Both the position numbers and the translations under genes were made by a program. The notes below the pieces were generated by a model. It did not search any database. It saw only the letters and a list, made by a program, of their open reading frames with translations, and was not told where the DNA came from. Below, in pieces: positions 1 through 16,204 of a stretch of 64,000 nucleotides of DNA; within the stretch, counting starts at the first letter, position 1; each line of letters opens with the position of its first letter. Where the stretch lies: positions 44,432 to 108,431 of IMG/VR virus record IMGVR_UViG_3300045978_000284. One strand, given 5' to 3'. The stretch is from a virus.

Positions 1-1375
1 CTACGATCGCGTGCTGCGCGGGGCCGGGCTCACGAACGTCCCCTATCTGAAGCAGCTTCCGCCGGTGGCCCAGGACGCGGTCCTTGAGGAGAGCGAGCCG
101 CTGGTCGAGCTGATGCTCAGCGAGTTCCTGCTCGCGGGCAACCCGTACCGGGCGGCCGATGGGACGTTCACCGACGCGGCCCACGACGTCGGCGGTGGCG
201 GTGTCGGTGGTGGTGGCGGCAAGGGCGGCGGCGCCGGGCCCGCTGCGGTCAAGGTCTCGCGCAGCGCGGCCCGGGGCGCCCAGATCGGCTGGGACCTCGG
301 GCGCCTCTTCGGCTCCACGAAGCTCTCCGGGGCAGCGGCGACCGGCATCGGGATCGCGGCCGGTCTCGGGTCGCTGGCCGCGGCGAATCCGGATGCGGCC
401 ATGAAAGTGGCGGGCCTGGCGAAGGCCCTCGGCTCGCGTGTCATGCGTCACGGGCCGGCGATCGCTGGAACCGTCCTGGCCGGCGCGGGCATGCTCGGGC
501 TGTCGCGCGTCGGCCGGCCCCCCGCGCCAGGGCGACAGTCACCGGCCGAGCTTGAAGTCGGCGCGGCCATGGCGCGGCAGGGCTTGCTCCCGCCCGCGGC
601 TCCCGGTGGCGCTCCCGCGAAGCCAGCGCTGGGAGCTCTGGCGACCGGGAAAATCCAGAACGCCAAGGCCGTGCTGCGCGAGGTGCTCTCGCGCTATCGC
701 TCGATGCCCCTCAAGCCGGAGGCGCCCGCCGCTCCAGCGGCGCCCGCCGAACCGCCCTACACGTCCTGGGTCGAGCGGCAGATCGCGTCGGGCGAGAAGG
801 GCTCGCGAGGCACGCGGCGGCTGCGCAAGGGCGGCGGCGTCGGCTACCAGGGCGGCCGCAACGTGCGCCTCGACGACGTGCTCGCCACGTTCCGGGAGTT
901 CCGCCTGGCGGATGAGGAGGACGACGCCCTGGAGGCCATCGACGTCGATGCCATCCCGGACGATCTCGCCGAGGCGATCCTGAAGATGCTGCAGGCCTAC
1001 GTGGAGCGCGAAGAGAAGGCGCTCTCCGAGCGGCTGCATCGCACGCTGACCGGCCAGGCGCTCGCCGATGGCGACCCGGAGGACGAGGACGAGGAAGAGG
1101 ACGAGGACGAGGACGAGGACGAGGATCTCGAGTCCCTGCCGAACCGGGTGCGCGCAGCCTGGAACGCGATGTACCCGATGGGCATCTCCATGAACGGCGC
1201 GCGCCATCCCTACCTCACCAAGATCTTCGAGGAGCACGTGATCGCGGAGGACGGCGAGCGGCCGAACACGTGGTGGCAGATTCCGTGGCGAGAGGTCGGC
1301 CCACAGATCGTCTTCGACATGGCGGCCCGCATCCCGGTCCACCAGGTGTGGCTGCCTGCGGGAGCGACCGCATGA
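1..1375 (+). CDS. C-terminal part of a Mu gpI-like prohead protease fusion (5' truncated by window edge), carrying one NPYR cargo module
   Basis: Frame open from base 2: YDRVLRGAGLTNVPYLK resembles the 'LTNxP' end of Mu gpI-type proteases; lies upstream of scaffold and capsid; followed by NPYRAADGTFT, Gly/Ala hydrophobic stretch and acidic tract. Confidence 0.65.
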   Translation, partial: YDRVLRGAGLTNVPYLKQLPPVAQDAVLEESEPLVELMLSEFLLAGNPYRAADGTFTDAAHDVGGGGVGGGGGKGGGAGPAAVKVSRSAARGAQIGWDLGRLFGSTKLSGAAATGIGIAAGLGSLAAANPDAAMKVAGLAKALGSRVMRHGPAIAGTVLAGAGMLGLSRVGRPPAPGRQSPAELEVGAAMARQGLLPPAAPGGAPAKPALGALATGKIQNAKAVLREVLSRYRSMPLKPEAPAAPAAPAEPPYTSWVERQIASGEKGSRGTRRLRKGGGVGYQGGRNVRLDDVLATFREFRLADEEDDALEAIDVDAIPDDLAEAILKMLQAYVEREEKALSERLHRTLTGQALADGDPEDEDEEEDEDEDEDEDLESLPNRVRAAWNAMYPMGISMNGARHPYLTKIFEEHVIAEDGERPNTWWQIPWREVGPQIVFDMAARIPVHQVWLPAGATA

Positions 1376-3288
1376 GCCTCCGGACGACCCTCGCCGAGCA
1401 CACCCTGGCCAACCCCTACCGGGACGAGGGCGGTCGGTTCACGACAGAGTCACAAGACACGGGTGGACGCACTGGGGGCGCGGCGAAAGGCGAGGGGCGC
1501 CTCGCCAAGACCGCCAAGCGCGTCGCGAAGGCGGCGGGGGCAGCACTGGATCTCCCGGAGGCCGAAACCCGGACGATCAGCGCCGATAGAGCGGCGGTGG
1601 GGAAGGCGATCAAGAGAGGCATCGGGCACGGTGTGGTGACCGGCCTGGTGCTCGGTCGGCGCGCCGGGCTCGTAACTGGAGCTGCGGAGGCCGTGACGCA
1701 GCTCTCCAAAGCGCCGAAGCTCCGGCGCACCGTCGACCGCGCCCTCCGCACAGTCAGTCGGGGCGCCATCAACCTGGGGCCCAAGGGTGTCGGCCAGCTG
1801 ATCAATGGCCTGGTCCTCACGGGAAGCCTCGCGTACTCGGCCTACCAGATCTACAAGGGGCTGCAGTCGCTGCGGCCCCCCGGGCCGAGTCGTCAGCTGG
1901 CCGAACCCGATGTGGCCGATCGGGAGTCGTTCGAGGCTGTGCCGGAGGTGATCTGGAAGGCCCTCCTGTCGGCCCTCAAGGACTACACCAAGCATGGCGA
2001 TGGCGATCGCCTGCAGCGGGACCTGGCCGCCATCGCGCCGGCCCAGTCCGAGCTATCGGAGACCCTGCAGGAGTACGCGCTGGCGAACCCGTACCGAGAT
2101 CGAGAGGGCAAGTTCACCACCGAGGCCGGCGACACGGGCGGCGGCGGGCGCGGTGCAAAGACCGAGAGGCCGCGCGCGCGCAAGCGCGGCCTGGGCGGTG
2201 AATCGGTATCCGAAAGCCTGAAGGTCGGTGCCGCCACTGGCGCGACGATGGCCGTCGGCAGCGCGTTCGCCATGCCGCCGTTGCATGCGGTTGGGGCCGG
2301 CGGCCTCTCGGGGGTCGGGGCGGCGGCCTGGAATATCGGGAAGAGCCCGAAAGGCCGCGCCGCCGTCGCCAAGACCGTGCGCACGCTGAGCAACGGTGCC
2401 ATCAAGATCGGCCCCAAGGCCGTGGGCCGCATCCTGAAAGGCGTTAGCGTGGCGGCCACTCTCGGGGGCAGCGCCGTGGCCATGCACGCGCTCTACAAGG
2501 CGATGGGTGGCGGAGGGGATCTCCTCGGAACCTTCCGCGACGAGCTGGCCAAGCCGGGAGGGCCCCGGGGCGGCCCGGCCCCGTTCTCCCCCTACGGTGG
2601 GAACGTGGTGAAAGAGCCCACCTATACGGGAGGAGGTCGTCCCCCCGATCCACCCGATCCGACCATTCGCCGACCGGGCGACACGGCGGCGGTCGAGTAC
2701 CGGGGCAAGACGTTCTATGGGAAGACCGAGGACGACGCCATGAACAAGCTCAGGCGAGCCCAGCTCCCCGAGCAGGGCGCATTCGTCGGAGACACGTCGA
2801 CCATCTTCCGCGGAACCTCCGGGAAGCCACTCGCCCCCGGCCTCGGCATCGTCGGCTACCCGAAGACCAGGGAGGAAGCCGCGGCGCGCACGCAGGCATT
2901 CCGGAGCACGGTGTATGGAGGCCAGAAGTTCACATCCAAGTCGAAGCCGATCCCGACGCTCGAGCCGCCCAAGGCGCGGTTGGGTGGCCTCCTGGGTCCG
3001 CCGCGCGTGGACACGCTCGAAGACCTGCTGAAGCGCCCCGGCTTCAAGCTGGCCGAGCCGGACGCGCCGGACGATCTGCCCGAACCGCTCCTGAAGGCCA
3101 TGGTGTCGGCCCTCCAGGACTACGCGAAGCACGAGGACGCCGACCGTCTCCGGCGGGATCTCGCGGCGATCCAGGCGCGCGTGGACGCGGCCGCGGACCA
3201 GACGGAACCCGCACTGTCAGAACCTTCCATCGGCGAGGTCCTGGGCCAGCAGGCCCGGAGAAGCCTGCTCGCCGCGATCGCCCACTGA
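1372..3288 (+). CDS. Head-operon protein with two NPYR-cargo-acidic-helix modules (putative internal/ejection protein)
   Basis: ATG at 1372 overlaps the upstream TGA (ATGA); internal duplication LANPYRDEGGRFTT / LANPYRDREGKFTT and ALKDYTKHGDGDRLQRDLAAI / ALQDYAKHEDADRLRRDLAAI. Confidence 0.7.
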   Translation: MSLRTTLAEHTLANPYRDEGGRFTTESQDTGGRTGGAAKGEGRLAKTAKRVAKAAGAALDLPEAETRTISADRAAVGKAIKRGIGHGVVTGLVLGRRAGLVTGAAEAVTQLSKAPKLRRTVDRALRTVSRGAINLGPKGVGQLINGLVLTGSLAYSAYQIYKGLQSLRPPGPSRQLAEPDVADRESFEAVPEVIWKALLSALKDYTKHGDGDRLQRDLAAIAPAQSELSETLQEYALANPYRDREGKFTTEAGDTGGGGRGAKTERPRARKRGLGGESVSESLKVGAATGATMAVGSAFAMPPLHAVGAGGLSGVGAAAWNIGKSPKGRAAVAKTVRTLSNGAIKIGPKAVGRILKGVSVAATLGGSAVAMHALYKAMGGGGDLLGTFRDELAKPGGPRGGPAPFSPYGGNVVKEPTYTGGGRPPDPPDPTIRRPGDTAAVEYRGKTFYGKTEDDAMNKLRRAQLPEQGAFVGDTSTIFRGTSGKPLAPGLGIVGYPKTREEAAARTQAFRSTVYGGQKFTSKSKPIPTLEPPKARLGGLLGPPRVDTLEDLLKRPGFKLAEPDAPDDLPEPLLKAMVSALQDYAKHEDADRLRRDLAAIQARVDAAADQTEPALSEPSIGEVLGQQARRSLLAAIAH

Positions 3289-3304: not shown

Positions 3305-4078
3305 ATGGGCAAGTTGCTCGTTCAGCTGCGCAAGGATCTCGCCCTCGCCGAGGACGCGACGGTCGTCGAGGTCATGGACCACATGGGCCGCATGCTCGCG
3401 GACGACATGACCGAGGAGGAGAAGAAGAAGGCCGAGGAAGAGGCCGCCGCCGCCAATGCGGCGAAGAGCGCCGAGGAGGAGGCCAAGAAGGAAGAGGACA
3501 AGGAGATGTCGGAGGTGCGCGCGCTGCTCAAGATCGCCAAGCCGAAGCCGGGCGCGATCCTGACGGCGGTGCGGACTCTCACGACGTCGGCCTCCGACCA
3601 CGTGCTCTCGGAGACCGCGCTGGGCCGCGAGCTTGCCGAGCTGCGCCTGTCCCACAAGGAGCTGTCAGATCAGGTCGAGGAGCTGCGCCCCGCGGCCGCG
3701 GAAGCGACGCGCCTGGCGGCCGAGGCGAAGGCCACCAAGAAGGCCACCTTCTTCGATCGCCAGCTCCACGAGGGCAAGCTGAAGCCGGCGGAGCGGTCGT
3801 TCTATGAGGCCCAGTACGACCTCAACGAGGACGCGGTGGTCAAGTTCTTCGGCGAGCGCAAGCCGGAGATCAAGCTCGGCCAGTGGCCGTCGGTCAATCG
3901 CCCGGTCGAGGAGCCCGCGGCCGGGGATCCGCGCGAGCGGGTGCTGGCCGAGGCGCAGAAGCTCGCCCTCGCCGAGAAGATTCCGCTCGACCAGGCCGTG
4001 CACCGCGTGACGGCCCAGGACCACGAGCTGGCCGAATCGGTGCGGGGCATGTACGGCCCGGCGGGCGTCCGCCGGTAA
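3305..4078 (+). CDS. Capsid scaffolding protein
   Basis: GAGGAG SD; E/K/A-rich coiled coil; 'HEGKLKPAER' segment like Mu gpI/Z scaffold C-terminus; position before decoration and capsid genes. Confidence 0.75.
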   Translation: MGKLLVQLRKDLALAEDATVVEVMDHMGRMLADDMTEEEKKKAEEEAAAANAAKSAEEEAKKEEDKEMSEVRALLKIAKPKPGAILTAVRTLTTSASDHVLSETALGRELAELRLSHKELSDQVEELRPAAAEATRLAAEAKATKKATFFDRQLHEGKLKPAERSFYEAQYDLNEDAVVKFFGERKPEIKLGQWPSVNRPVEEPAAGDPRERVLAEAQKLALAEKIPLDQAVHRVTAQDHELAESVRGMYGPAGVRR

Positions 4079-4579: not shown

Positions 4580-5521
4580 ATGCCTCCGGCACGGCTCGAC
4601 CCACGTGATGTGCGTATCGACCCGCTGCTGTCGTCGATCTCGGTGGCGTATGTGAACCGGGCCTACATCGCCCCGGGGATCGCGCCGGTCATCCCGAGCG
4701 ACCTCGACGGCGGTCGGTACACGGAGTACAACCAGGCGGACTGGTTCCGGAACGAAGCGTCCAAGCGCGCGGCCGGCACGCGCTCGCGACGCGGCGAGTA
4801 CGGGATCACCTTCTCGACCTACTTCTGCGAGGAAGTGGCGTTCTCGCGGGAAATCCCGGACGAGATCCGGCAGAACGCGATGCAGCCGATCCGTCCCGAC
4901 ACCGACGCCACCAACTACGCCACGGACAAGGTCATGCTGGCGAAGGAGGTGCGGGTCGCCACCAAGATGCGGACGGCGGCCAACTGGCCCGGCTCGGTGG
5001 CCCTGACCGGCACCAACCGCTGGAACGACTACGCGAACAGCGATCCCATCTCTGACGTCGAGGCGGGGATCGACCTGATCCACGGCCGCACGGGGTACGA
5101 CGTCAACACGATGGTCCTGCCCCATCCGGTGTGGAAGAAGCTCAAGCATCACCCGGACATCATCGACCGCATCAAGTACAGCCAGCGCGGCTTCGTGAAC
5201 GTGGAGCTGCTGCAGGAGCTGTTCGAGGTCGAGCGGATCATGGTGGCCAAGCCCGTGTACACCCAGAGCAACGAAGGGCTGGCGGCCGGCGCCGAGACCT
5301 ACCAGTACGTGTGGGGCAAGGACGTCTGGCTCGGCTACATCACGGGCAATCCGGGCATCCAGGAACCGACGGCGATGTACCAGTTCGTGAGCGGCCAGCG
5401 GGCCACGCGCACCTGGCGGGAAGAGCCCGAGCACCAGGACGTGGTCGAGGCCTACGAGAAGGTGGACGAGAAGGTGATCAGCCAGCTGCTGGGCTATCTG
5501 ATCGCCACCGCGATCGACTAG
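4580..5521 (+). CDS. Major capsid protein (HK97 fold, capsid-E-like family)
   Basis: 313 aa; 'IDPLLSSISVAY.N..YIA', 'WNDYANSDPISDV', 'LKHHPDIIDRIKY', 'YVWGKDVWLGY' typical of this MCP family. Confidence 0.9.
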   Translation: MPPARLDPRDVRIDPLLSSISVAYVNRAYIAPGIAPVIPSDLDGGRYTEYNQADWFRNEASKRAAGTRSRRGEYGITFSTYFCEEVAFSREIPDEIRQNAMQPIRPDTDATNYATDKVMLAKEVRVATKMRTAANWPGSVALTGTNRWNDYANSDPISDVEAGIDLIHGRTGYDVNTMVLPHPVWKKLKHHPDIIDRIKYSQRGFVNVELLQELFEVERIMVAKPVYTQSNEGLAAGAETYQYVWGKDVWLGYITGNPGIQEPTAMYQFVSGQRATRTWREEPEHQDVVEAYEKVDEKVISQLLGYLIATAID

Positions 5522-10020: not shown

Positions 10021-10482
10021 ATGGTCCGTCTCCGCGAGGTCTCCGTCGACGAGCTGCTCGAGGCGGGGATGCCGGACCAGGTGTGCGATCCCTACGGGGT
10101 GACCTACCGGGCCATGGATGCCGACGAGCAGGTGGCGCTGCGCCTGTCCTGGGAGCACTGGATGAACCGGCTCCTGGCCACCGCCATCGAGGAACCCGCT
10201 TTCCTGCGCGACGAGCGGAAGATCAACCTGATGGGCCCGGACCGGGATCGGGTCGGCTACGCGATGCTGCGCCGCTGGGGGATCCTCTCGGACACGCCCG
10301 GGCGGCTCGATACGACGATGAAGCGCCGCCACTTCCTCGGCATGGTGCAGCGGTTCTCGCTCCGGATGCGCATGCTCCCGACGGACGTGCTCGCCATGCC
10401 GGCCAGCAAGTTCTGGCGAAACTACCTGATCCTGTTCGGCGACTTCGGGTCTCCCGACGAGGAGGTGATGCGCGGTGCCTGA
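10021..10482 (+). CDS. Tail assembly chaperone gpT-like portion (possibly reached by frameshift)
   Basis: Immediately before tape measure; C-terminal 'MLPTDVLAMPASKF' resembles gpT ends; frame open from 9814; no SD at 10021. Confidence 0.55.
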   Translation: MVRLREVSVDELLEAGMPDQVCDPYGVTYRAMDADEQVALRLSWEHWMNRLLATAIEEPAFLRDERKINLMGPDRDRVGYAMLRRWGILSDTPGRLDTTMKRRHFLGMVQRFSLRMRMLPTDVLAMPASKFWRNYLILFGDFGSPDEEVMRGA

Positions 10483-13400
10483 CGAACGGCTGATGTACGA
10501 GGTGCAGGCCACCTGGCGGGACAACGCCACCCAGGGCATCCGCGAGTTCCAGCAGCAGCTCGCCACCACGACGAAGAACACCGTCGACTGGATGGCGACG
10601 ACGCGAGATGCCATCCCGATCGCCGGGCAGCTCCAGCAGCGATGGAACGAGGTCGCGCTGGCGATGCGCAACGTGGCGCCGTCGATCGCCCAGACCATGA
10701 CCAACCTGACGTCGCTGCACGGCGTCATCCAGCTGGGGGCCCGGCTGATCACAGACCGGATCACCGCGACCAACAAGGCCGCGGAGAGCCAGGCTCAGTG
10801 GAACATCTCGATTCGCAGCATGACGATGGACGCGTTCGAGGCGGAGCTGGCCTCGGCCAACCGCTCACTCGAAGAGTTCACGGTCCGCAGCGAGAGCTTC
10901 CTCGGGCGCCTGGTCAACGCCTGGACCGATGCCAAGAAAAAGTTCCAGGAAGGCCAGACGACCCGCGAACAGTTCCAGGCCGCCCAGCAACAGTTCAACG
11001 AAGCGTTTACCCTACGCGAGCTACCGCAGCTGCAGATCCGCGACCAGCTGGAGATGCTCGCCATCCAGCGACGCATGGCCGAGGCCAAGCGGGACGCATC
11101 CCGGACCGAGCAGGAAGCCGCCCAGCACGAGCGGGAGCGCGTGCTCATCATGCGCCAGCAGCGCGAGCTGCAGCTCGAGCTGGAGCGGATCGAGCTGCGC
11201 CGCCAGATCGCCGCCTCCCAGGCCATGGGGCAGACGGCCCGAGCAGAGTACTACCAGGGGCGCCTGGCTCGGGTGGACCAAGCGGGGGTCGCCGCCCAGC
11301 AGATCGAGGATCTCGAACGCCAGCCGCGACGCGGCACCGTGACGGGCACGGGCACGGTCAGCTTCCGGGAAGGCCGCCAGCTGATCGCGCCGGCGGTCGC
11401 CGCGCTGGCGCCCGAGTTTGCCGGCCCGGTCTTCCAGGGCGCCCAGGCCCTGCGCCTCGGCGGCTTCGTCGCGGCCTCGGGAGCGATGGGCGCCGGCATC
11501 GCCCTCGGTGCGATCGGCGTCGGCGTGACGGCGCTCGCCGCGTACATGAACGCCGCGAACGAGGCGGCGCAGGCGCAGGCCGCGCTGAACCTCGCGGTCC
11601 GCTCCTTCGATGTGAGCGGGCTCCATTCCCAGCTGCGCTCGCTCCACGGGGACCTGGAGCTGATCGACGTCCGTGCGGAGTCGATCACCGGGCACTTCGT
11701 CAACATGAGCGCGGCGTTCTACAAGTTCCTGACCGGCATGCCCACGGAGCGCGAGCTGTTCGTCCAGCGCGCAGCCGCGCTGTCGGCGATTTTCGCCGAG
11801 ACCGAAGGAGCGGCCGCGACGGCGCGGGCCAACCAGGCGATCATCGGCGGCCAGCAGGCCGGCGTCGGGGCCCAGCTCGAGGAGGCCCGCTTCCGTCGTG
11901 GCCTGGCGGTGTCCCCGGGGGCGATCGCGGGAGCCGTCGGGGTGGAGCGCGGCCTCATGCAGCGCCAGACCGAGCTGGAGGTGCAGAGCCTCAACGAACA
12001 GCTGCGGGAGCTCGAAGCGCAGCGGCGCAGCCGCCTGAAGCCCATCGAGGATCTCATCCGTCGCTTCGAGAACATCCCGGGCGGCGACATGGGCGAGCGC
12101 GCCGGCCAGATGAGCCGCGACATCGAGGCGCGCCTCAGGTGGGAGATGCGCACCGGCTTCCGGGACCCCGCGCTCCCGCGATTGAGGGAAGAGCAGCAGA
12201 CCATGGCGCGGGCCGCCAGAGCGGGCGGGCTCGAACAGCTGCGCACATCGGCGGAGGAAGAGTTCGAGGGCCGGCGCCAGCAGCTCATCATGCAGCGCGC
12301 CGCCGTCGAAGAGCGCGGGGCGACGGCGCGGCGCGGGCTCGACATCGAGCTGCAGCTGGGCAATCTCCAGCGCATCCAGGAGGGTCTGCAAAGCATCATC
12401 TCGGCGCGCACGCTCCTGTCGCAAGGCACCATCGAGGGAGCCCGCTACGAGCGCGGCCGCGCCATCATCCCCCAGGACATCGAGCGCGCCGGGGCCATCG
12501 AACGCGCGGAGATCGTCCAGACGCTGGACCTCGAATCGTGGACGCTCAGGAATCAGCTCACCCAGCTCGACGAGGAGCGAAAACTCCGCGGCAGCGAACC
12601 CTACGGTCGCCGCGAGGCGCTCGAAACCCAGCTCGACGCCCTGGCCCGCCGCCGGCTGAACGTCCTGCAGCAGTTCGACGACCGCCTCCAGGCCGAGCGC
12701 CAGGCCATGATCGAGGCCATCCGGGTCCGGGAACAGCAAGGCGAGCTGCTGCTCGACTCCGCGCTCTACGGTGCGGTGAGCCCCCTGGCCCAGCAGCAAG
12801 CGGAGGAATACGGCCAGCGGATCATGGCCGGCCAGGAGCTGCAGCGCACCTACAACCTGCCGGCCATCATGGAGCAGCTGCAGGGGCGCATCCCGGAGGC
12901 CTTGCGCGAGCGCCTGGGGCGCGCCGCGCCGGCGATCGCCCCGATGGAGATCTCCCAGATCCAGCGCGAGATGGACTTTCGCGCCCAGCAGGAGCAGTAC
13001 CGCCTGGCGGGACGCGACCGCGAGATCCAGGCCCGTCAGGAGCAGTTCCAGGCGCTCTACCAGATGGGCCAGATCACACAGCCCGAGATGTCCCGCGCCG
13101 AGATCGCCGGCATGGCGGAGCAGGTCGACGTCCTCACCGACCGCATCCGCGAGCTGAACCGCCAGCGCGACGCGCTTGCCGACACCAGCCAGAACCAGGC
13201 CCAGCGGGAAGCGCTCGTGGAGGAGACGCGCAAGACCACCGCCGAGATCGAGCGGCTCTACCGGGACATGATCGTGTCGATCAAGGAAGTGGGGGACCAG
13301 GAGGACCCCTTCGCCGGCGTCATCAAGGGCCTCCAGGACGTGGCCTCCGGCGCCGAACAGTGGGGCACCCGGATGCGCTCGATCGTGCAGGGCACGGCGT

Positions 13401-16204
13401 CCGACCTGGGCGGCTTCATGTCGAACAGCTTCTTCACCGTGGTGGACGAGGGATTCAAGGGGCTCGGGCCGCTGGCCGAGCAGGCGGGGCGCGCCATCGT
13501 CACGCGCTTCCTCTCGGCATTCGCAGAGGCCCAGCTCTCGGATCTCGCCAAGATGTTCCTGGGCCAGGGAGCCGCCCGCGGCTTCCCGACGCTGACGAGC
13601 ATCGCCCCGTCGGGTGCCGCCGACGGCGGGGCTCCCACCACAGGCGGCATCCTCCCGGCGGCGGCGGCGATCGCGCCCTTCGTGTCGAGTGGTCCGATCG
13701 CGCATCCGGCCGAGCCCTCGAGGCCGACGGGTGTCAGCGTACCCGCTGCGGTCCCGGCCGTCCCGGCGGAGCCCGTCGAGATTCCGGAGCCCGTCGCGAT
13801 CCCCGCCGAACCCGCGGAGCCCGTCGAGATTCCGGAGCCCGTCGCGCTGCCCGCGCCGCCCATCGGCGTTGTCCAGCTTCCGCATCTTCTCGCGATTCCA
13901 GCCGATCCTCTGGCGCCCATCGACATCCCGGAGCCCATCGCCCTGCCCTCCGGCCCCCTGCTGCCGATCGAGATCCCGGAACCCATCGCGATTCCGTCGG
14001 ATCCGCTCGTGCCGATCGAGATCCCCGCGCCCATCGCGCTCCCGGCGGGCCCGCTCCTCCAGGTCGAGGTCCCGGAGCCGATTGCGCTCCCGGCGGAGCC
14101 GGTCGATCTGACCGCGATGCCATCCGTGGCCACGGTGGCGCCGCCGCTGCTGCCAGAGTTCGTGGCCTTGTCGCCCGCGCCGACCCAGACGCCGCTTGGG
14201 TTGGCGGGTCAGATTGGCCAGCTCGCCCGCATCCTCACGGGCGGCCTCGTGGGAGGTCAGCGCCAGCCGATCGCCGTCCCGCCTGACCTGATCAGCGCCT
14301 TGGTCCTGCCCGGAGCGGCCGTGCCAGGCGCGCAGGCCGTCTCCGGCCCCATGGAGCCGATGGGGCAAGGCTTCGCCTTCCCAGACGTCAGCCAGTACAG
14401 CTTCGGACTGGGCCGCGTCACGGCGCCACAGGTGGGGACCCCCGTCGTCCCTCGTGCACCGGCCACTGGGTTCTCGGGATTCGTCGAGGGGCTGGGAACG
14501 TCGGTGCGCGGGTTCCTCGGCACGCCGATCTCGCAGTTCTTCGGCGGCGGGACGTCCGCGGCCGCCCAGGCGCGGCAGCTCCAGAGCATGGACGCGTTCG
14601 CCACGTTCGACGAGATGGGCACGGCGATGCCCTCCCAGACACCTGGGTTCCAGTCCATGACGCGGTTCGGCGAGTTCGGCGAGATCACGCCTTCGGTGTC
14701 GGCCGCCGGCGCTGGGAGTGGCTTCGACCTGACCGCGGCGCTGCAGTCGCTGACCGTGGGCCAGGGGCTCGGCCTCGCGCTCTCCTCGGTGACCTTCGGT
14801 GTCGGCCTCTACTCGGCCTACCAGTCGGGATCGCCCCTGGCGGGCACGATCACGGGCGGGCTCTCTGGCGCGGCCCTGGGCGGCCAGCTGGCGGCCACGG
14901 GCCTCGTCCCGGTGGCCAGCTCGACGGCCGGCGCGATCGGGGCGGGCGTGGGCGCCGCGGCGGGGCTCGCGCTGGCGCTCGCCGGTCGGGCCAAGACGAA
15001 GCAGGAAAAGCGAACAGCTATCAACCGGACGCGGCGCATGGGGGCCTATGCCACGGGAGCCGCGCGCCTCGTCCGCCGTCTGGCGCAGGGGCTGGACGAG
15101 GCGGTCGACCGGGCGAACGAGGAGGTCCAGAACGCCGCGAAGAACGCCACCCTGGCGAAGCCGGTCGCGGTGCTCGACGAGTATCTACGGACGCACGTCG
15201 TCGGCGATCTGGGCGACCCCGGCTACACCATGACCAACGGGTGGAAGACCTTCGGCGGCACGATGAAGGGCATCACGGGCGAGATCCAGTACGGCCAGGC
15301 GATCGCTTTCAAGGACCCGCTGCCGAAGGGGTGGGGCATCCGCCCGGGCGGCCGCGTGATCGACCCGGACCCGAGGTTCGATGTCATCCTGCACGAGGCC
15401 GACCTCGGGGCCGGCACGCCCCCCACAGAGTTCTGGGGCTACGCGGACGCCGGCGACGTGGTCACGGTGCTGGCTGAATACGTCCGGGTGCGGGAGAGGT
15501 TTCAGGAGATGCAGGACCGACTCGACCTGGAAGCGGCGGGCGACCGCCTGACGGCAGCGGCGGAAGCGGCGGACGAACACGTGGCGGCCATGGCCAAGCT
15601 CGCCTATGGTCAGCCGCGCGCGGCGGCGATCTTCTTCGAGTCGCTCCGGGGCGGCCAGGTGGCCGGACTGCCCCTCGGCGGCGTGATCCGGAAGCTCGCC
15701 CAGCTCAACCTGGCCGGTCGCTTCGGGCAGGACTGGCCGGTCGATGCCGAGCTGCAGGGCCTCGCGGACGACGAGCGCCTGGGTCCCGCGGTGGATGTGC
15801 CGGACTCGTTCATCGCGGCGGACAATCTGGGGCGCCTCCGGTCGATCGTGGAGGGCGCCCGCCGCGGGCGCGAACAGCTGGACGAGGCAGACGCGGACCT
15901 GCGCGCCCAGTTCCAGGAAATCGGTGAAAAGGCCCCCATCGCCTATGATGAACGCTCGACCGTGGGGGGCGTGACCAGGCGGACGTACTTGCCGTTCCAG
16001 GCGCGGCCGGGCGGACCGGCCGACGACGTGTATGAAGCGCCCCGGGGCCAGCAGTTCCTCGTCAGCGGCCAGCAGCTCGGCTCGCTCGGACTCACGGACG
16101 ATCAGGTGTCGGATCTGATCAAGCACATCCGCGAAGTGGCAGGCCGCCGGGGCATGGTGATGGACCTCGGGTCAGATGATTTCATGATGACCGGCCTCGG
16201 CTGA
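10475..16204 (+). CDS. Tape measure protein
   Basis: 1909 aa, A/E/Q/R-rich helical composition, Gly-rich hydrophobic segments, position after chaperones. Confidence 0.85.
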   Translation: MPDERLMYEVQATWRDNATQGIREFQQQLATTTKNTVDWMATTRDAIPIAGQLQQRWNEVALAMRNVAPSIAQTMTNLTSLHGVIQLGARLITDRITATNKAAESQAQWNISIRSMTMDAFEAELASANRSLEEFTVRSESFLGRLVNAWTDAKKKFQEGQTTREQFQAAQQQFNEAFTLRELPQLQIRDQLEMLAIQRRMAEAKRDASRTEQEAAQHERERVLIMRQQRELQLELERIELRRQIAASQAMGQTARAEYYQGRLARVDQAGVAAQQIEDLERQPRRGTVTGTGTVSFREGRQLIAPAVAALAPEFAGPVFQGAQALRLGGFVAASGAMGAGIALGAIGVGVTALAAYMNAANEAAQAQAALNLAVRSFDVSGLHSQLRSLHGDLELIDVRAESITGHFVNMSAAFYKFLTGMPTERELFVQRAAALSAIFAETEGAAATARANQAIIGGQQAGVGAQLEEARFRRGLAVSPGAIAGAVGVERGLMQRQTELEVQSLNEQLRELEAQRRSRLKPIEDLIRRFENIPGGDMGERAGQMSRDIEARLRWEMRTGFRDPALPRLREEQQTMARAARAGGLEQLRTSAEEEFEGRRQQLIMQRAAVEERGATARRGLDIELQLGNLQRIQEGLQSIISARTLLSQGTIEGARYERGRAIIPQDIERAGAIERAEIVQTLDLESWTLRNQLTQLDEERKLRGSEPYGRREALETQLDALARRRLNVLQQFDDRLQAERQAMIEAIRVREQQGELLLDSALYGAVSPLAQQQAEEYGQRIMAGQELQRTYNLPAIMEQLQGRIPEALRERLGRAAPAIAPMEISQIQREMDFRAQQEQYRLAGRDREIQARQEQFQALYQMGQITQPEMSRAEIAGMAEQVDVLTDRIRELNRQRDALADTSQNQAQREALVEETRKTTAEIERLYRDMIVSIKEVGDQEDPFAGVIKGLQDVASGAEQWGTRMRSIVQGTASDLGGFMSNSFFTVVDEGFKGLGPLAEQAGRAIVTRFLSAFAEAQLSDLAKMFLGQGAARGFPTLTSIAPSGAADGGAPTTGGILPAAAAIAPFVSSGPIAHPAEPSRPTGVSVPAAVPAVPAEPVEIPEPVAIPAEPAEPVEIPEPVALPAPPIGVVQLPHLLAIPADPLAPIDIPEPIALPSGPLLPIEIPEPIAIPSDPLVPIEIPAPIALPAGPLLQVEVPEPIALPAEPVDLTAMPSVATVAPPLLPEFVALSPAPTQTPLGLAGQIGQLARILTGGLVGGQRQPIAVPPDLISALVLPGAAVPGAQAVSGPMEPMGQGFAFPDVSQYSFGLGRVTAPQVGTPVVPRAPATGFSGFVEGLGTSVRGFLGTPISQFFGGGTSAAAQARQLQSMDAFATFDEMGTAMPSQTPGFQSMTRFGEFGEITPSVSAAGAGSGFDLTAALQSLTVGQGLGLALSSVTFGVGLYSAYQSGSPLAGTITGGLSGAALGGQLAATGLVPVASSTAGAIGAGVGAAAGLALALAGRAKTKQEKRTAINRTRRMGAYATGAARLVRRLAQGLDEAVDRANEEVQNAAKNATLAKPVAVLDEYLRTHVVGDLGDPGYTMTNGWKTFGGTMKGITGEIQYGQAIAFKDPLPKGWGIRPGGRVIDPDPRFDVILHEADLGAGTPPTEFWGYADAGDVVTVLAEYVRVRERFQEMQDRLDLEAAGDRLTAAAEAADEHVAAMAKLAYGQPRAAAIFFESLRGGQVAGLPLGGVIRKLAQLNLAGRFGQDWPVDAELQGLADDERLGPAVDVPDSFIAADNLGRLRSIVEGARRGREQLDEADADLRAQFQEIGEKAPIAYDERSTVGGVTRRTYLPFQARPGGPADDVYEAPRGQQFLVSGQQLGSLGLTDDQVSDLIKHIREVAGRRGMVMDLGSDDFMMTGLG
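13760..14110 (+). repeat. About seven degenerate 16-aa proline-rich repeats inside the tape measure gene
   Basis: PAEPAEPVEIPEPVAL / PADPLAPIDIPEPIAL / PSGPLLPIEIPEPIAI / PSDPLVPIEIPAPIAL / PAGPLLQVEVPEPIAL. Confidence 0.85.

Follow-up and report, generated by a model that had tools for sequence, protein, structure and literature searches.

A recurrent sequence tag ahead of variable cargo in tailed-virus head operons, with three probable members inserted between a prohead protease and its scaffold

Phage proteins that are carried in the head and injected include the internal proteins and Alt of T4, the Dar proteins of P1, and toxins fused to MuF or portal proteins. The T4 internal proteins (IPI-III) and Alt bear a capsid targeting sequence, a short N-terminal leader that takes unrelated cargo into the prohead, and the T4 protease gp21 follows the cleavage rule L/I-x-E. 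Outside T4, we know of no general sequence rule for which proteins get loaded. Short border motifs are familiar from polymorphic toxins, where V-E-N-N in CdiA and D-P-x-G-L in Rhs proteins mark the start of swappable C-terminal cargo. Polyvalent proteins, MuF toxins, and portal fusions of phages are treated in three papers (PMC5512222, PMC5576092, PMC11699363). Here, we describe a tag of ~20 residues and three modules that open with it in a 64,000-nucleotide stretch of viral DNA (the window), positions 44,432-108,431 of IMG/VR virus record IMGVR_UViG_3300045978_000284. The source record spans 108,431 bp, is an estimated 96% complete, and has ~69% G+C; the modules occupy the start of the late head operon of this uncultured high-GC phage (Table 1). 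As judged from its genomic contexts, the tag is a widespread element that marks where variable cargo joins head-assembly proteins.

The locus shares features with each of several described systems. As in T4, the protease has the gp21 fold, the candidate L-x-E sites fit the gp21 rule, the cargo is basic, and acidic parts would be removed. Unlike the T4 leader, to which it bears no sequence relation, the window tag would stay on the cargo, the candidate cut being upstream; tags also stand internally after portal, MuF, and protease domains, are repeated in polyproteins, and occur in very distant groups, including archaeal proviruses. Like the CdiA and Rhs border motifs, the tag is a short conserved motif that opens swappable cargo, although its sequence, carrier, and delivery route differ, and whereas the Rhs motif belongs to an autoprotease fold, the phage tag is a ~20-residue element between flexible linkers. 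The protease belongs to the family of the phage Mu gpI/gpZ protease-scaffold gene (PF10123), and relatives of the window phage keep protease and scaffold in one open reading frame (ORF); the window phage encodes its scaffold in a gene of its own, set apart from the protease by ~1060 residues of tagged modules. Encapsulin cargo-loading peptides offer an analogy only: a short, linker-borne peptide loads diverse cargo into an HK97-fold shell, without sequence similarity to the phage tag. Finally, the tag family sits in late-head-gene effectors of the polyvalent and MuF/portal-fused polymorphic toxin kinds, as portrayed by Iyer et al. (2017, PMC5512222) and Jamet et al. (2017, PMC5576092). Unlike these effectors, the window modules lack a MuF, portal, or recognizable enzyme domain, which other tag carriers have.

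A search of all six frames of the genome (108,431 bp) located N-P-Y-R-x-x-x-G-x-F-T at three places only, in frame at 140, 1411, and 2086 in two adjacent genes, which are the positions that the first-pass annotation of this DNA had recorded. Inspection of the sequence likewise recovered the L-x-E-x-x-L-A that it placed upstream, and the Gly-rich linker with D-(T/V)-G-G that it placed downstream, at each copy. The first gene, ORF A (587 aa; L003:14043-15806), starts 388 nt before the window, and its stop overlaps the start of ORF B (1372-3288, 638 aa) in an ATGA. Both frames carry a coding signal, with 0.85-0.88 G+C at third codon positions (GC3) and GC3 > GC1 > GC2. Tag copy 1 lies 14 residues past the protease domain of ORF A. 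The same annotation saw one module three times over, a description that holds for the tag and the general layout; sequence paralogy extends to modules 2 and 3 only. Cargos 2 and 3, tags included, are homologous (BLASTP, 1e-16), as are acidic helices 2 and 3 (7e-14), and tblastn also recovers the paralogy of the two modules (6e-13 and 8e-13). Cargo 1 is divergent, as had been claimed: the match of module 1 to module 2 is significant across the tag and Gly linker only (4e-5), and the match of acidic helix 1 is weak (0.019). Because its similarity is confined to tag and linker, module 1 is an analogue, whereas modules 2 and 3 are paralogues.

Table 1. Features of the tagged modules and adjoining head genes (window coordinates)
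Feature	Position	Strand	Evidence or remark
C-terminal end of ORF A prohead protease domain	2..100	+	PF10123, phrog_328, AlphaFold2 (AF2) model, fold match
Tag copy 1 (L-x-L-S-E junction motif, then N-P-Y-R core)	110..172	+	Most diverged copy
Gly-rich linker 1	173..238	+	Sequence
Cargo 1: basic, Gly/Ala-rich, mildly hydrophobic and Pro/Ala-rich; orphan	239..871	+	Charge/hydropathy profile; homologues not found
Acidic helix 1 and poly-Asp/Glu run	872..1135	+	Net charge -10 and -19 per 30-residue block
ORF A C-terminal segment, ~79 residues and stop	1136..1375	+	No family match
Tag copy 2, N-terminus of ORF B (from residue 14)	1387..1449	+	Tag hidden Markov model (HMM), 21.7 bits
Cargo 2: basic, Gly/Ala-rich, predicted helices	1450..1887	+	Homologous to cargo 3
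Acidic helix 2, between L-A-E (residue 176) and L-S-E (residue 228)	1888..2061	+	BLASTP/tblastn to helix 3
Tag copy 3	2062..2124	+	Tag HMM, 22.4 bits; low-confidence beta-hairpin in AF2 model
Cargo 3, paralogue of cargo 2	2125..2526	+	BLASTP, tblastn
Segment of ~170 residues in module 3, absent from module 2	2527..3036	+	Comparison gap; predicted local distance difference test (pLDDT) < 55
Acidic helix 3, between L-A-E (residue 560) and L-S-E (residue 615), then 21-residue tail and stop	3037..3288	+	BLASTP/tblastn to helix 2
Scaffolding protein, 257 aa, coiled coil, own gene	3305..4078	+	Weak match to phrog_3894 (its positions 276-424 of 458)
Small conserved head-operon protein, 134 aa	4112..4516	+	Same-position homologue in 7/24 related loci
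Major capsid protein	4580..5521	+	phrog_1005, 1.7e-86; PF03864, 3.4e-5

The N-terminal domain of ORF A is a Mu gpI-type prohead protease with the gp21/assemblin fold, which bears out the earlier assignment of this ORF. Residues 29-163 match PF10123 (Mu-like_Pro) at 65 bits against a cut-off of 25.2, and the protein matches the head maturation protease family phrog_328 at 5.8e-19. An AF2 model computed with 14 relatives gave pLDDT values of 70-90 for the protease domain, whose nearest fold is T4 gp21 (5jbl_A; Z 9.2, root-mean-square deviation 3.9, 123 residues aligned), followed by the varicella-zoster virus protease (Z 7.8) and the human cytomegalovirus protease. The candidate catalytic residues H37, H73, and S116 are invariant in a 15-sequence protease alignment.

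Comparison with relatives locates the modules in the history of the operon. By capsid-protein similarity, 24 viral loci (L223-L246) are related at 36-43% identity, with ~30% G+C vs 69% here. These relatives encode protease and coiled-coil scaffold in a single ORF of ~435 aa (378-445), and none of the 24 carries a tag at this region. From protease start to capsid gene, the distance is ~1.5 kb in relatives vs ~5.0 kb in the window. The 15-sequence alignment shows residues L167, L169, and E171 of ORF A (L-x-L-S-E) to be invariant; relatives have this motif at the opening of their scaffold half, and the window has the tag immediately after it. The window scaffold aligns collinearly with the C-terminal half of the L229 fusion, at a non-significant score. 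Given that the 24 relatives keep the protease-scaffold fusion without the motif, and that L-x-L-S-E opens the scaffold in relatives but precedes the tag in the window, the ~3.3 kb of tagged modules is a lineage-specific insertion at the protease/scaffold junction that was later duplicated.

Two further differences from the relatives were observed. Their proteases (e.g., L229:7277-8572) have a conserved N-terminal extension of ~60 residues ahead of the protease domain, which the window protease lacks. Compared with the point at which the scaffold begins in the relatives, the window scaffold is longer by ~65 residues at its N-terminus (3305-3500); this stretch opens with a second L-x-L-A-E-D-A-T-type helix and may be a local duplication.

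Beyond the window, an exhaustive HMMER search with module 2 (1.84 billion representatives) returned P0002 as the sole match beyond ORF B. This protein has three tags, each after a short hydrophobic stretch ending K-[AN] and each before a different domain: an uncharacterized domain, a GNAT acetyltransferase, and an ADP-ribosyltransferase (PF03496, 2.5e-25). Searching with a profile of nine motif copies retrieved 25 proteins, including more ADP-ribosyltransferases, a zincin-like protein, and P0025, in which an XkdF-type protease-like N-terminus (by eye) leads into an acidic helix, then the motif, a run of Gly, and a C-terminal domain, as in ORF A. Scanning IMG/VR with the His form of the core as the pattern yielded at least 120 viral loci with at least 152 tagged reading frames; the tallies that follow are among the matches listed. 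Conservation extends to positions that the search pattern left free, so the matches are not due to chance: 66% have K at -2 and 48% have F at -1, position -4 favors I/V/L, and positions +10 and +11 favor T and T/S, respectively, ahead of a Gly/Ala/Ser-rich stretch. The consensus reads [IVL]-x-K-[FA]-N-P-Y-H-D-x-x-G-R-F-[TA]-[TS], then the linker; the stretch upstream of the core is short and amphipathic and most often ends K-[FA]. A Gly/Ala/Ser-rich linker stands behind 83% of tags, and a median of 262 residues extends past the last tag.

The tagged proteins fall among head-assembly proteins and effectors. Across 89 complete non-redundant tagged ORFs, Pfam annotations comprised portal (12), XkdF-type protease (6), and MuF (3), alongside ADPrib_exo_Tox (9) and two each of ART-PolyVal, ART, zeta toxin, and glutamine-deamidase toxin; S78 protease, DUF2213, NUDIX, and 2H were single cases. 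In portal and MuF proteins, 15-30 residues separate the end of the anchor domain from the tag; in the ADP-ribosyltransferase cases, the tag precedes the enzyme. It falls within 75 residues of the upstream stop in 74/117 complete ORFs, often 5-10 residues past the start codon, and at 150 residues or more in 38/117. Two to six tags occur in at least 16 ORFs, and at least 24 loci encode more than one tagged protein, in some cases from arrays of neighboring genes that differ in cargo. The two nearest same-strand neighbors per side are mostly portal, MuF-like head morphogenesis, head maturation protease, large terminase, and capsid genes, and at least four protease families (Mu gpI, XkdF, S78, and DUF2213) are found together with the tag. 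The first-pass annotation had proposed the motif as the entry of swappable cargo linked to head operons. Profile and pattern scans agree, placing the tag before ADP-ribosyltransferase, GNAT, zeta-toxin, glutamine-deamidase, NUDIX, and 2H domains; the outcome is the opposite of a motif unlinked to head operons with invariant cargo, as neighbors are mostly head genes and the cargo varies.

Across prokaryotes, sampled at one genome per species, 96 stretches were found vs ~17 expected by chance (our own estimate from pattern degeneracy), in Clostridia, Alphaproteobacteria, Verrucomicrobia, Bacteroidota, Chloroflexi, Corynebacterium, Nitrososphaera, and Methanobrevibacter; isolates of Novosphingobium, Mixta, and Corynebacterium are among the hosts. 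The tag is present in the putative portal of Nitrososphaera provirus Pro-Nvie1 (H46, FR725450.1 5638-5709) and in Nitrososphaera and Methanobrevibacter contigs (L153, L143), so that tailed viruses of both bacteria and archaea carry it. Against cultured phages, tblastn with the tag as query, an insensitive method at 30 residues, returned only the Nitrososphaera provirus portal and a Caudoviricetes protease. The same loci also hold variants (N-H-N-H-D, N-E-N-H-D, D-Q-P-R-D..G-R-W, and H-P-R-D..G-R-F), across which the constant part is only [HR]-D-x-x-G-[RK]-[FW].

Some carriers are very large. The most extreme tagged polyprotein found is a 2597-aa ORF on the minus strand of L121, with six canonical tags at 297, 979, 1431, 1630, 2016, and 2199 and tagged adjoining ORFs; L075 is likewise a giant tagged case. 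In L006, the gene directly after a protease gene encodes a Gly/Ala-rich protein of 1259 aa that bears N-P-Y-R-D and H-R-R-D tags. Two genes upstream of this pair lies an 830-aa MuF-like head morphogenesis protein (L006:760-3252), the N-terminal 170 residues of which match domains of giant polyvalent and DarB-like proteins. The source records of the high-GC contigs with N-P-Y-R-D tags (L004-L006) contained no match to the window capsid protein.

Several lines of evidence connect the window motif to this family. Both ORF B copies fit fully the core used for membership, N-P-[YFHN]-[HR]-D-x-x-G-[RK]-[FW]-[TAS]-[TS], and an HMM built from unrelated viral contigs scores both (Table 1) with no other match in the phage genome. 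The window tags have L-A or A-G where the family has K-F; scored on flanks only, they rank at the ~98.9th, 99.7th, and >99.9th percentiles of the genome, the ORF A copy exceeding the 99.9th. Their placement is that of the family, N-terminal or just past a head-assembly domain, in a head operon. On these grounds, the window motif is very probably a diverged, Arg-form member.

The segments behind the window tags are basic, with a net charge of +2 to +6 per 30 residues over most of their length (+2 to +5 across ORF B residues 31-150 in cargo 2), Gly/Ala-rich, and predicted to be helical. The best 19-residue Kyte-Doolittle means are 1.45 for ORF A and 1.22 for ORF B, under the usual membrane-helix threshold of ~1.6. 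These maxima tell against the membrane-active glycine-zipper helices initially envisaged, and transmembrane or holin-like cargo helices were rejected on the same ground, hydropathy below threshold. Membrane activity of the cargo is accordingly unlikely, and a DNA-associated or ejected cargo is at least as likely as a membrane-inserting one. Homology searches were uninformative: tblastn against cultured phages found no homologue of ORF B, a 5.8-billion-protein search with ORF B and ORF A returned self-matches only, and the cargo had no homologue in the viral-contig search and no usable match in the ESM Atlas. ORF B and the ORF A extension match no Pfam, PHROG, or NCBIfam family, so no MuF, portal, or effector enzyme domain is detected there. 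An AF2 model of ORF B (pLDDT 39) contained no confident fold.

The acidic helices are similarly isolated. The first-pass annotation proposed co-assembly with the scaffold through the acidic helix, which remains a guess, given that this helix has no detectable relation to the scaffold. The exhaustive HMMER search (1.84 billion representatives) found no relatives of the acidic helices elsewhere, and BLASTP of the scaffold against ORF B gave no match. An HMM of the scaffold start, built from the relatives, missed the acidic helices and also the window's own scaffold. By eye, the acidic helix resembles the scaffold N-terminus, as if duplicated from it, a likeness that neither HMM nor BLASTP matched.

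Candidate processing sites were assessed by comparing counts of L-[AS]-[ED] with 2000 composition-preserving shuffles. The motif was observed 5 times vs 1.18 expected in the ORF A extension (p 0.004), 5 vs 1.16 in ORF B (p 0.003), 8 vs 1.10 in the scaffold (0/2000 shuffles reached 8), and 7 vs 1.48 in a 1132-aa protein encoded upstream of the window (0/2000 shuffles reached 7), an enrichment of 4-7 fold overall in those four proteins. The capsid protein and three more proteins of the head operon have none, and a 1909-aa ORF farther downstream (10475-16204) is not enriched. In ORF B, the sites at residues 7, 176, 228, 560, and 615 are placed so that every tag has one immediately ahead of it and every acidic helix has one at either end; those in ORF A include residues 432, 452, 471, and 484, in the region of acidic helix 1. 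An L-x-E lies 5-6 residues ahead of each window tag core. With the gp21-like fold and the gp21 rule, this arrangement is consistent with the processing that the first-pass annotation proposed, in which acidic helices would be excised and basic peptides bearing the tag would be left. Taken as a cleavage map, the L-[AS]-[ED] sites are plausible, at slightly less than an even chance.

The 1132-aa protein is a multi-enzyme (polyvalent) head-operon protein (L003:9196-12594; genome 39196-42594) with HAD/PNK-like (phrog_1238, phrog_415) and PI3/PI4-kinase-like (PF00454, 9e-9) parts. It has no N-P-Y tag and, with its seven L[AS][ED] sites, appears to be a second polyprotein of different organization. 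Downstream of the modules, ORF B and the capsid gene are separated by 1.3 kb; connector and tail genes follow the capsid gene, and then the 1909-aa ORF, which has no PHROG match at E <= 0.001 and no other family match. This ORF sits after a tail tube-like gene and presumably encodes the tape measure protein.

We propose that the tag, on its flexible linker, is the element by which cargo is recognized inside the assembling procapsid, and its likeliest partner would be the prohead protease or the scaffold core, as for the T4 capsid targeting sequence. The gp21-fold protease would then cut at L-[AS]-[ED], 5-6 residues before the tag cores and on both sides of the acidic helices. The acidic helices would be discarded, while the basic Gly/Ala-rich peptides would keep the tag and remain in the head once it is filled with DNA. 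In this account, we infer from sequence and operon context that the modules are packaged, where they are cut, and what the cargo does and becomes. The N-terminal position of the tag on most stand-alone proteins points to a recognition or targeting element rather than a mere cut site. Given that the tag is kept after portal, MuF, and protease anchors and repeated before the domains of polyproteins, it may also serve the release or handling of each cargo unit. Its absence from capsid proteins (0/89 tagged ORFs among the matches listed) and its co-occurrence with at least four protease families argue that it is not a generic protease site. A cargo-side docking element combined with lineage-specific upstream cleavage would fit the placement, the retention and repetition, and the absence from capsid proteins. 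Encapsidation of the tagged modules is likely; the account of the window as a whole, with three head-internal tagged modules, recognition in the procapsid, cleavage, and retained basic cargo, stands at about an even chance.

Several observations weigh against this reading. Tags retained after anchors, or repeated within a protein, are superfluous for simple targeting, and capsid proteins are missing from the 89 tagged ORFs. In the AF2 model of ORF A with 14 relatives, the tag was neither docked on the protease domain nor ordered. The ORF A tag copy is itself weak, scoring 0.6 bits with the tag HMM and carrying D -> A and R -> T changes in its core. The window cargo has neither a homologue in the searches above nor a confident fold, and the tag is absent from the checked cultured actinophage MuF- or protease-toxin fusions (IAmGroot, Iter). 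On the cleavage side, the shuffle test ignores helix-forming sequence bias; elsewhere, an acidic residue lies 5-7 positions before the core in 42% of tags among the matches listed, and the L-x-E site is therefore local to the window lineage, outside the general tag. That K-[FA]-N-P-Y-H-D-x-x-G-R-F and its variants constitute a general, ancient encapsidation and processing signal of bacterial and archaeal tailed viruses is a tentative proposal, for which we judge the chance to be about one in three.

The tag could instead be a release site, at or next to which the polyprotein is cut by the prohead protease or autocatalytically, freeing its domains. Tags stand between every domain pair in multi-domain proteins (three in P0002, six in the 2597-aa ORF) and directly past anchor domains that would already secure encapsidation, as this explanation predicts. 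Yet a cut would release nothing in the 74/117 complete ORFs (among the matches listed) that are tagged near the N-terminus, and the Asn-Pro pair varies (N-H-N-H-D, D-Q-P-R-D, H-P-R-D). The lack of any capsid protein among the 89 tagged ORFs listed and the presence of the tag alongside at least four protease families also speak against release, which we regard as improbable. The N-P-x-H core resembles the N-P-T-H self-cleavage loop of FlhB/EscU-type export proteins, a resemblance useful as a lead only. Asn-Pro self-cleavage of this type was rejected as a general mechanism, since Asn-Pro is replaced in same-locus variants and low-complexity linkers flank the tag.

Alternatively, the modules might be extra scaffold or core for a 108-kb phage head, degraded and expelled at maturation, with nothing delivered. 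An insertion point exactly at the boundary of the protease and scaffold parts of the ancestral gene suits such a role, as do the predicted helical, low-complexity composition, the acidic helices, the lack of any enzymatic domain in family searches, and an L[AS][ED] enrichment shared with the scaffold. However, the same tag heads toxins and enzymes elsewhere, the modules have no similarity to the scaffold by BLASTP, and a separate, complete scaffold gene lies downstream. Strongly basic segments, moreover, are unusual in scaffolds and typical of internal DNA-associated proteins, and an extra-scaffold role is therefore doubtful. A third explanation, in which the tag docks cargo on the portal/MuF complex or orders protein ejection through the tail with the protease uninvolved, draws on portal and MuF-like proteins being the commonest fusion partners and neighbors among the matches listed and on the portal C-terminus facing the head interior, but it is very unlikely, as the tagged genes of the window attach to the protease rather than the portal and multiple tags per protein are left unexplained.

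Encapsidated, processed phage cargo is already known; the tag family is what we did not find described. No paper carrying the motif strings in the sense of a cargo tag was found in a literature search, and term searches in PMC5512222, PMC5576092, and PMC11699363 turned up no border motif of this kind. The tag is not covered by any Pfam or NCBIfam model, and it occurs in no solved structure among Protein Data Bank chains.

A conserved tag of ~20 residues before unrelated toxins and enzymes, with a range that includes Clostridia and Alphaproteobacteria and reaches archaeal proviruses, would supply a loading rule. Such a rule would allow injected effectors and anti-defense proteins to be predicted from genomes and the release of MuF and portal toxins from their anchors to be explained, and the tag would offer a practical handle for capsid cargo loading. 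If the tag is indeed a general signal, tagged proteins would enter the head and travel with the DNA, the injected proteome would be readable from sequence, and foreign cargo would be loadable by adding ~20 residues. The phage of the window illustrates how a standard protease-scaffold gene has been split and expanded by cargo modules.

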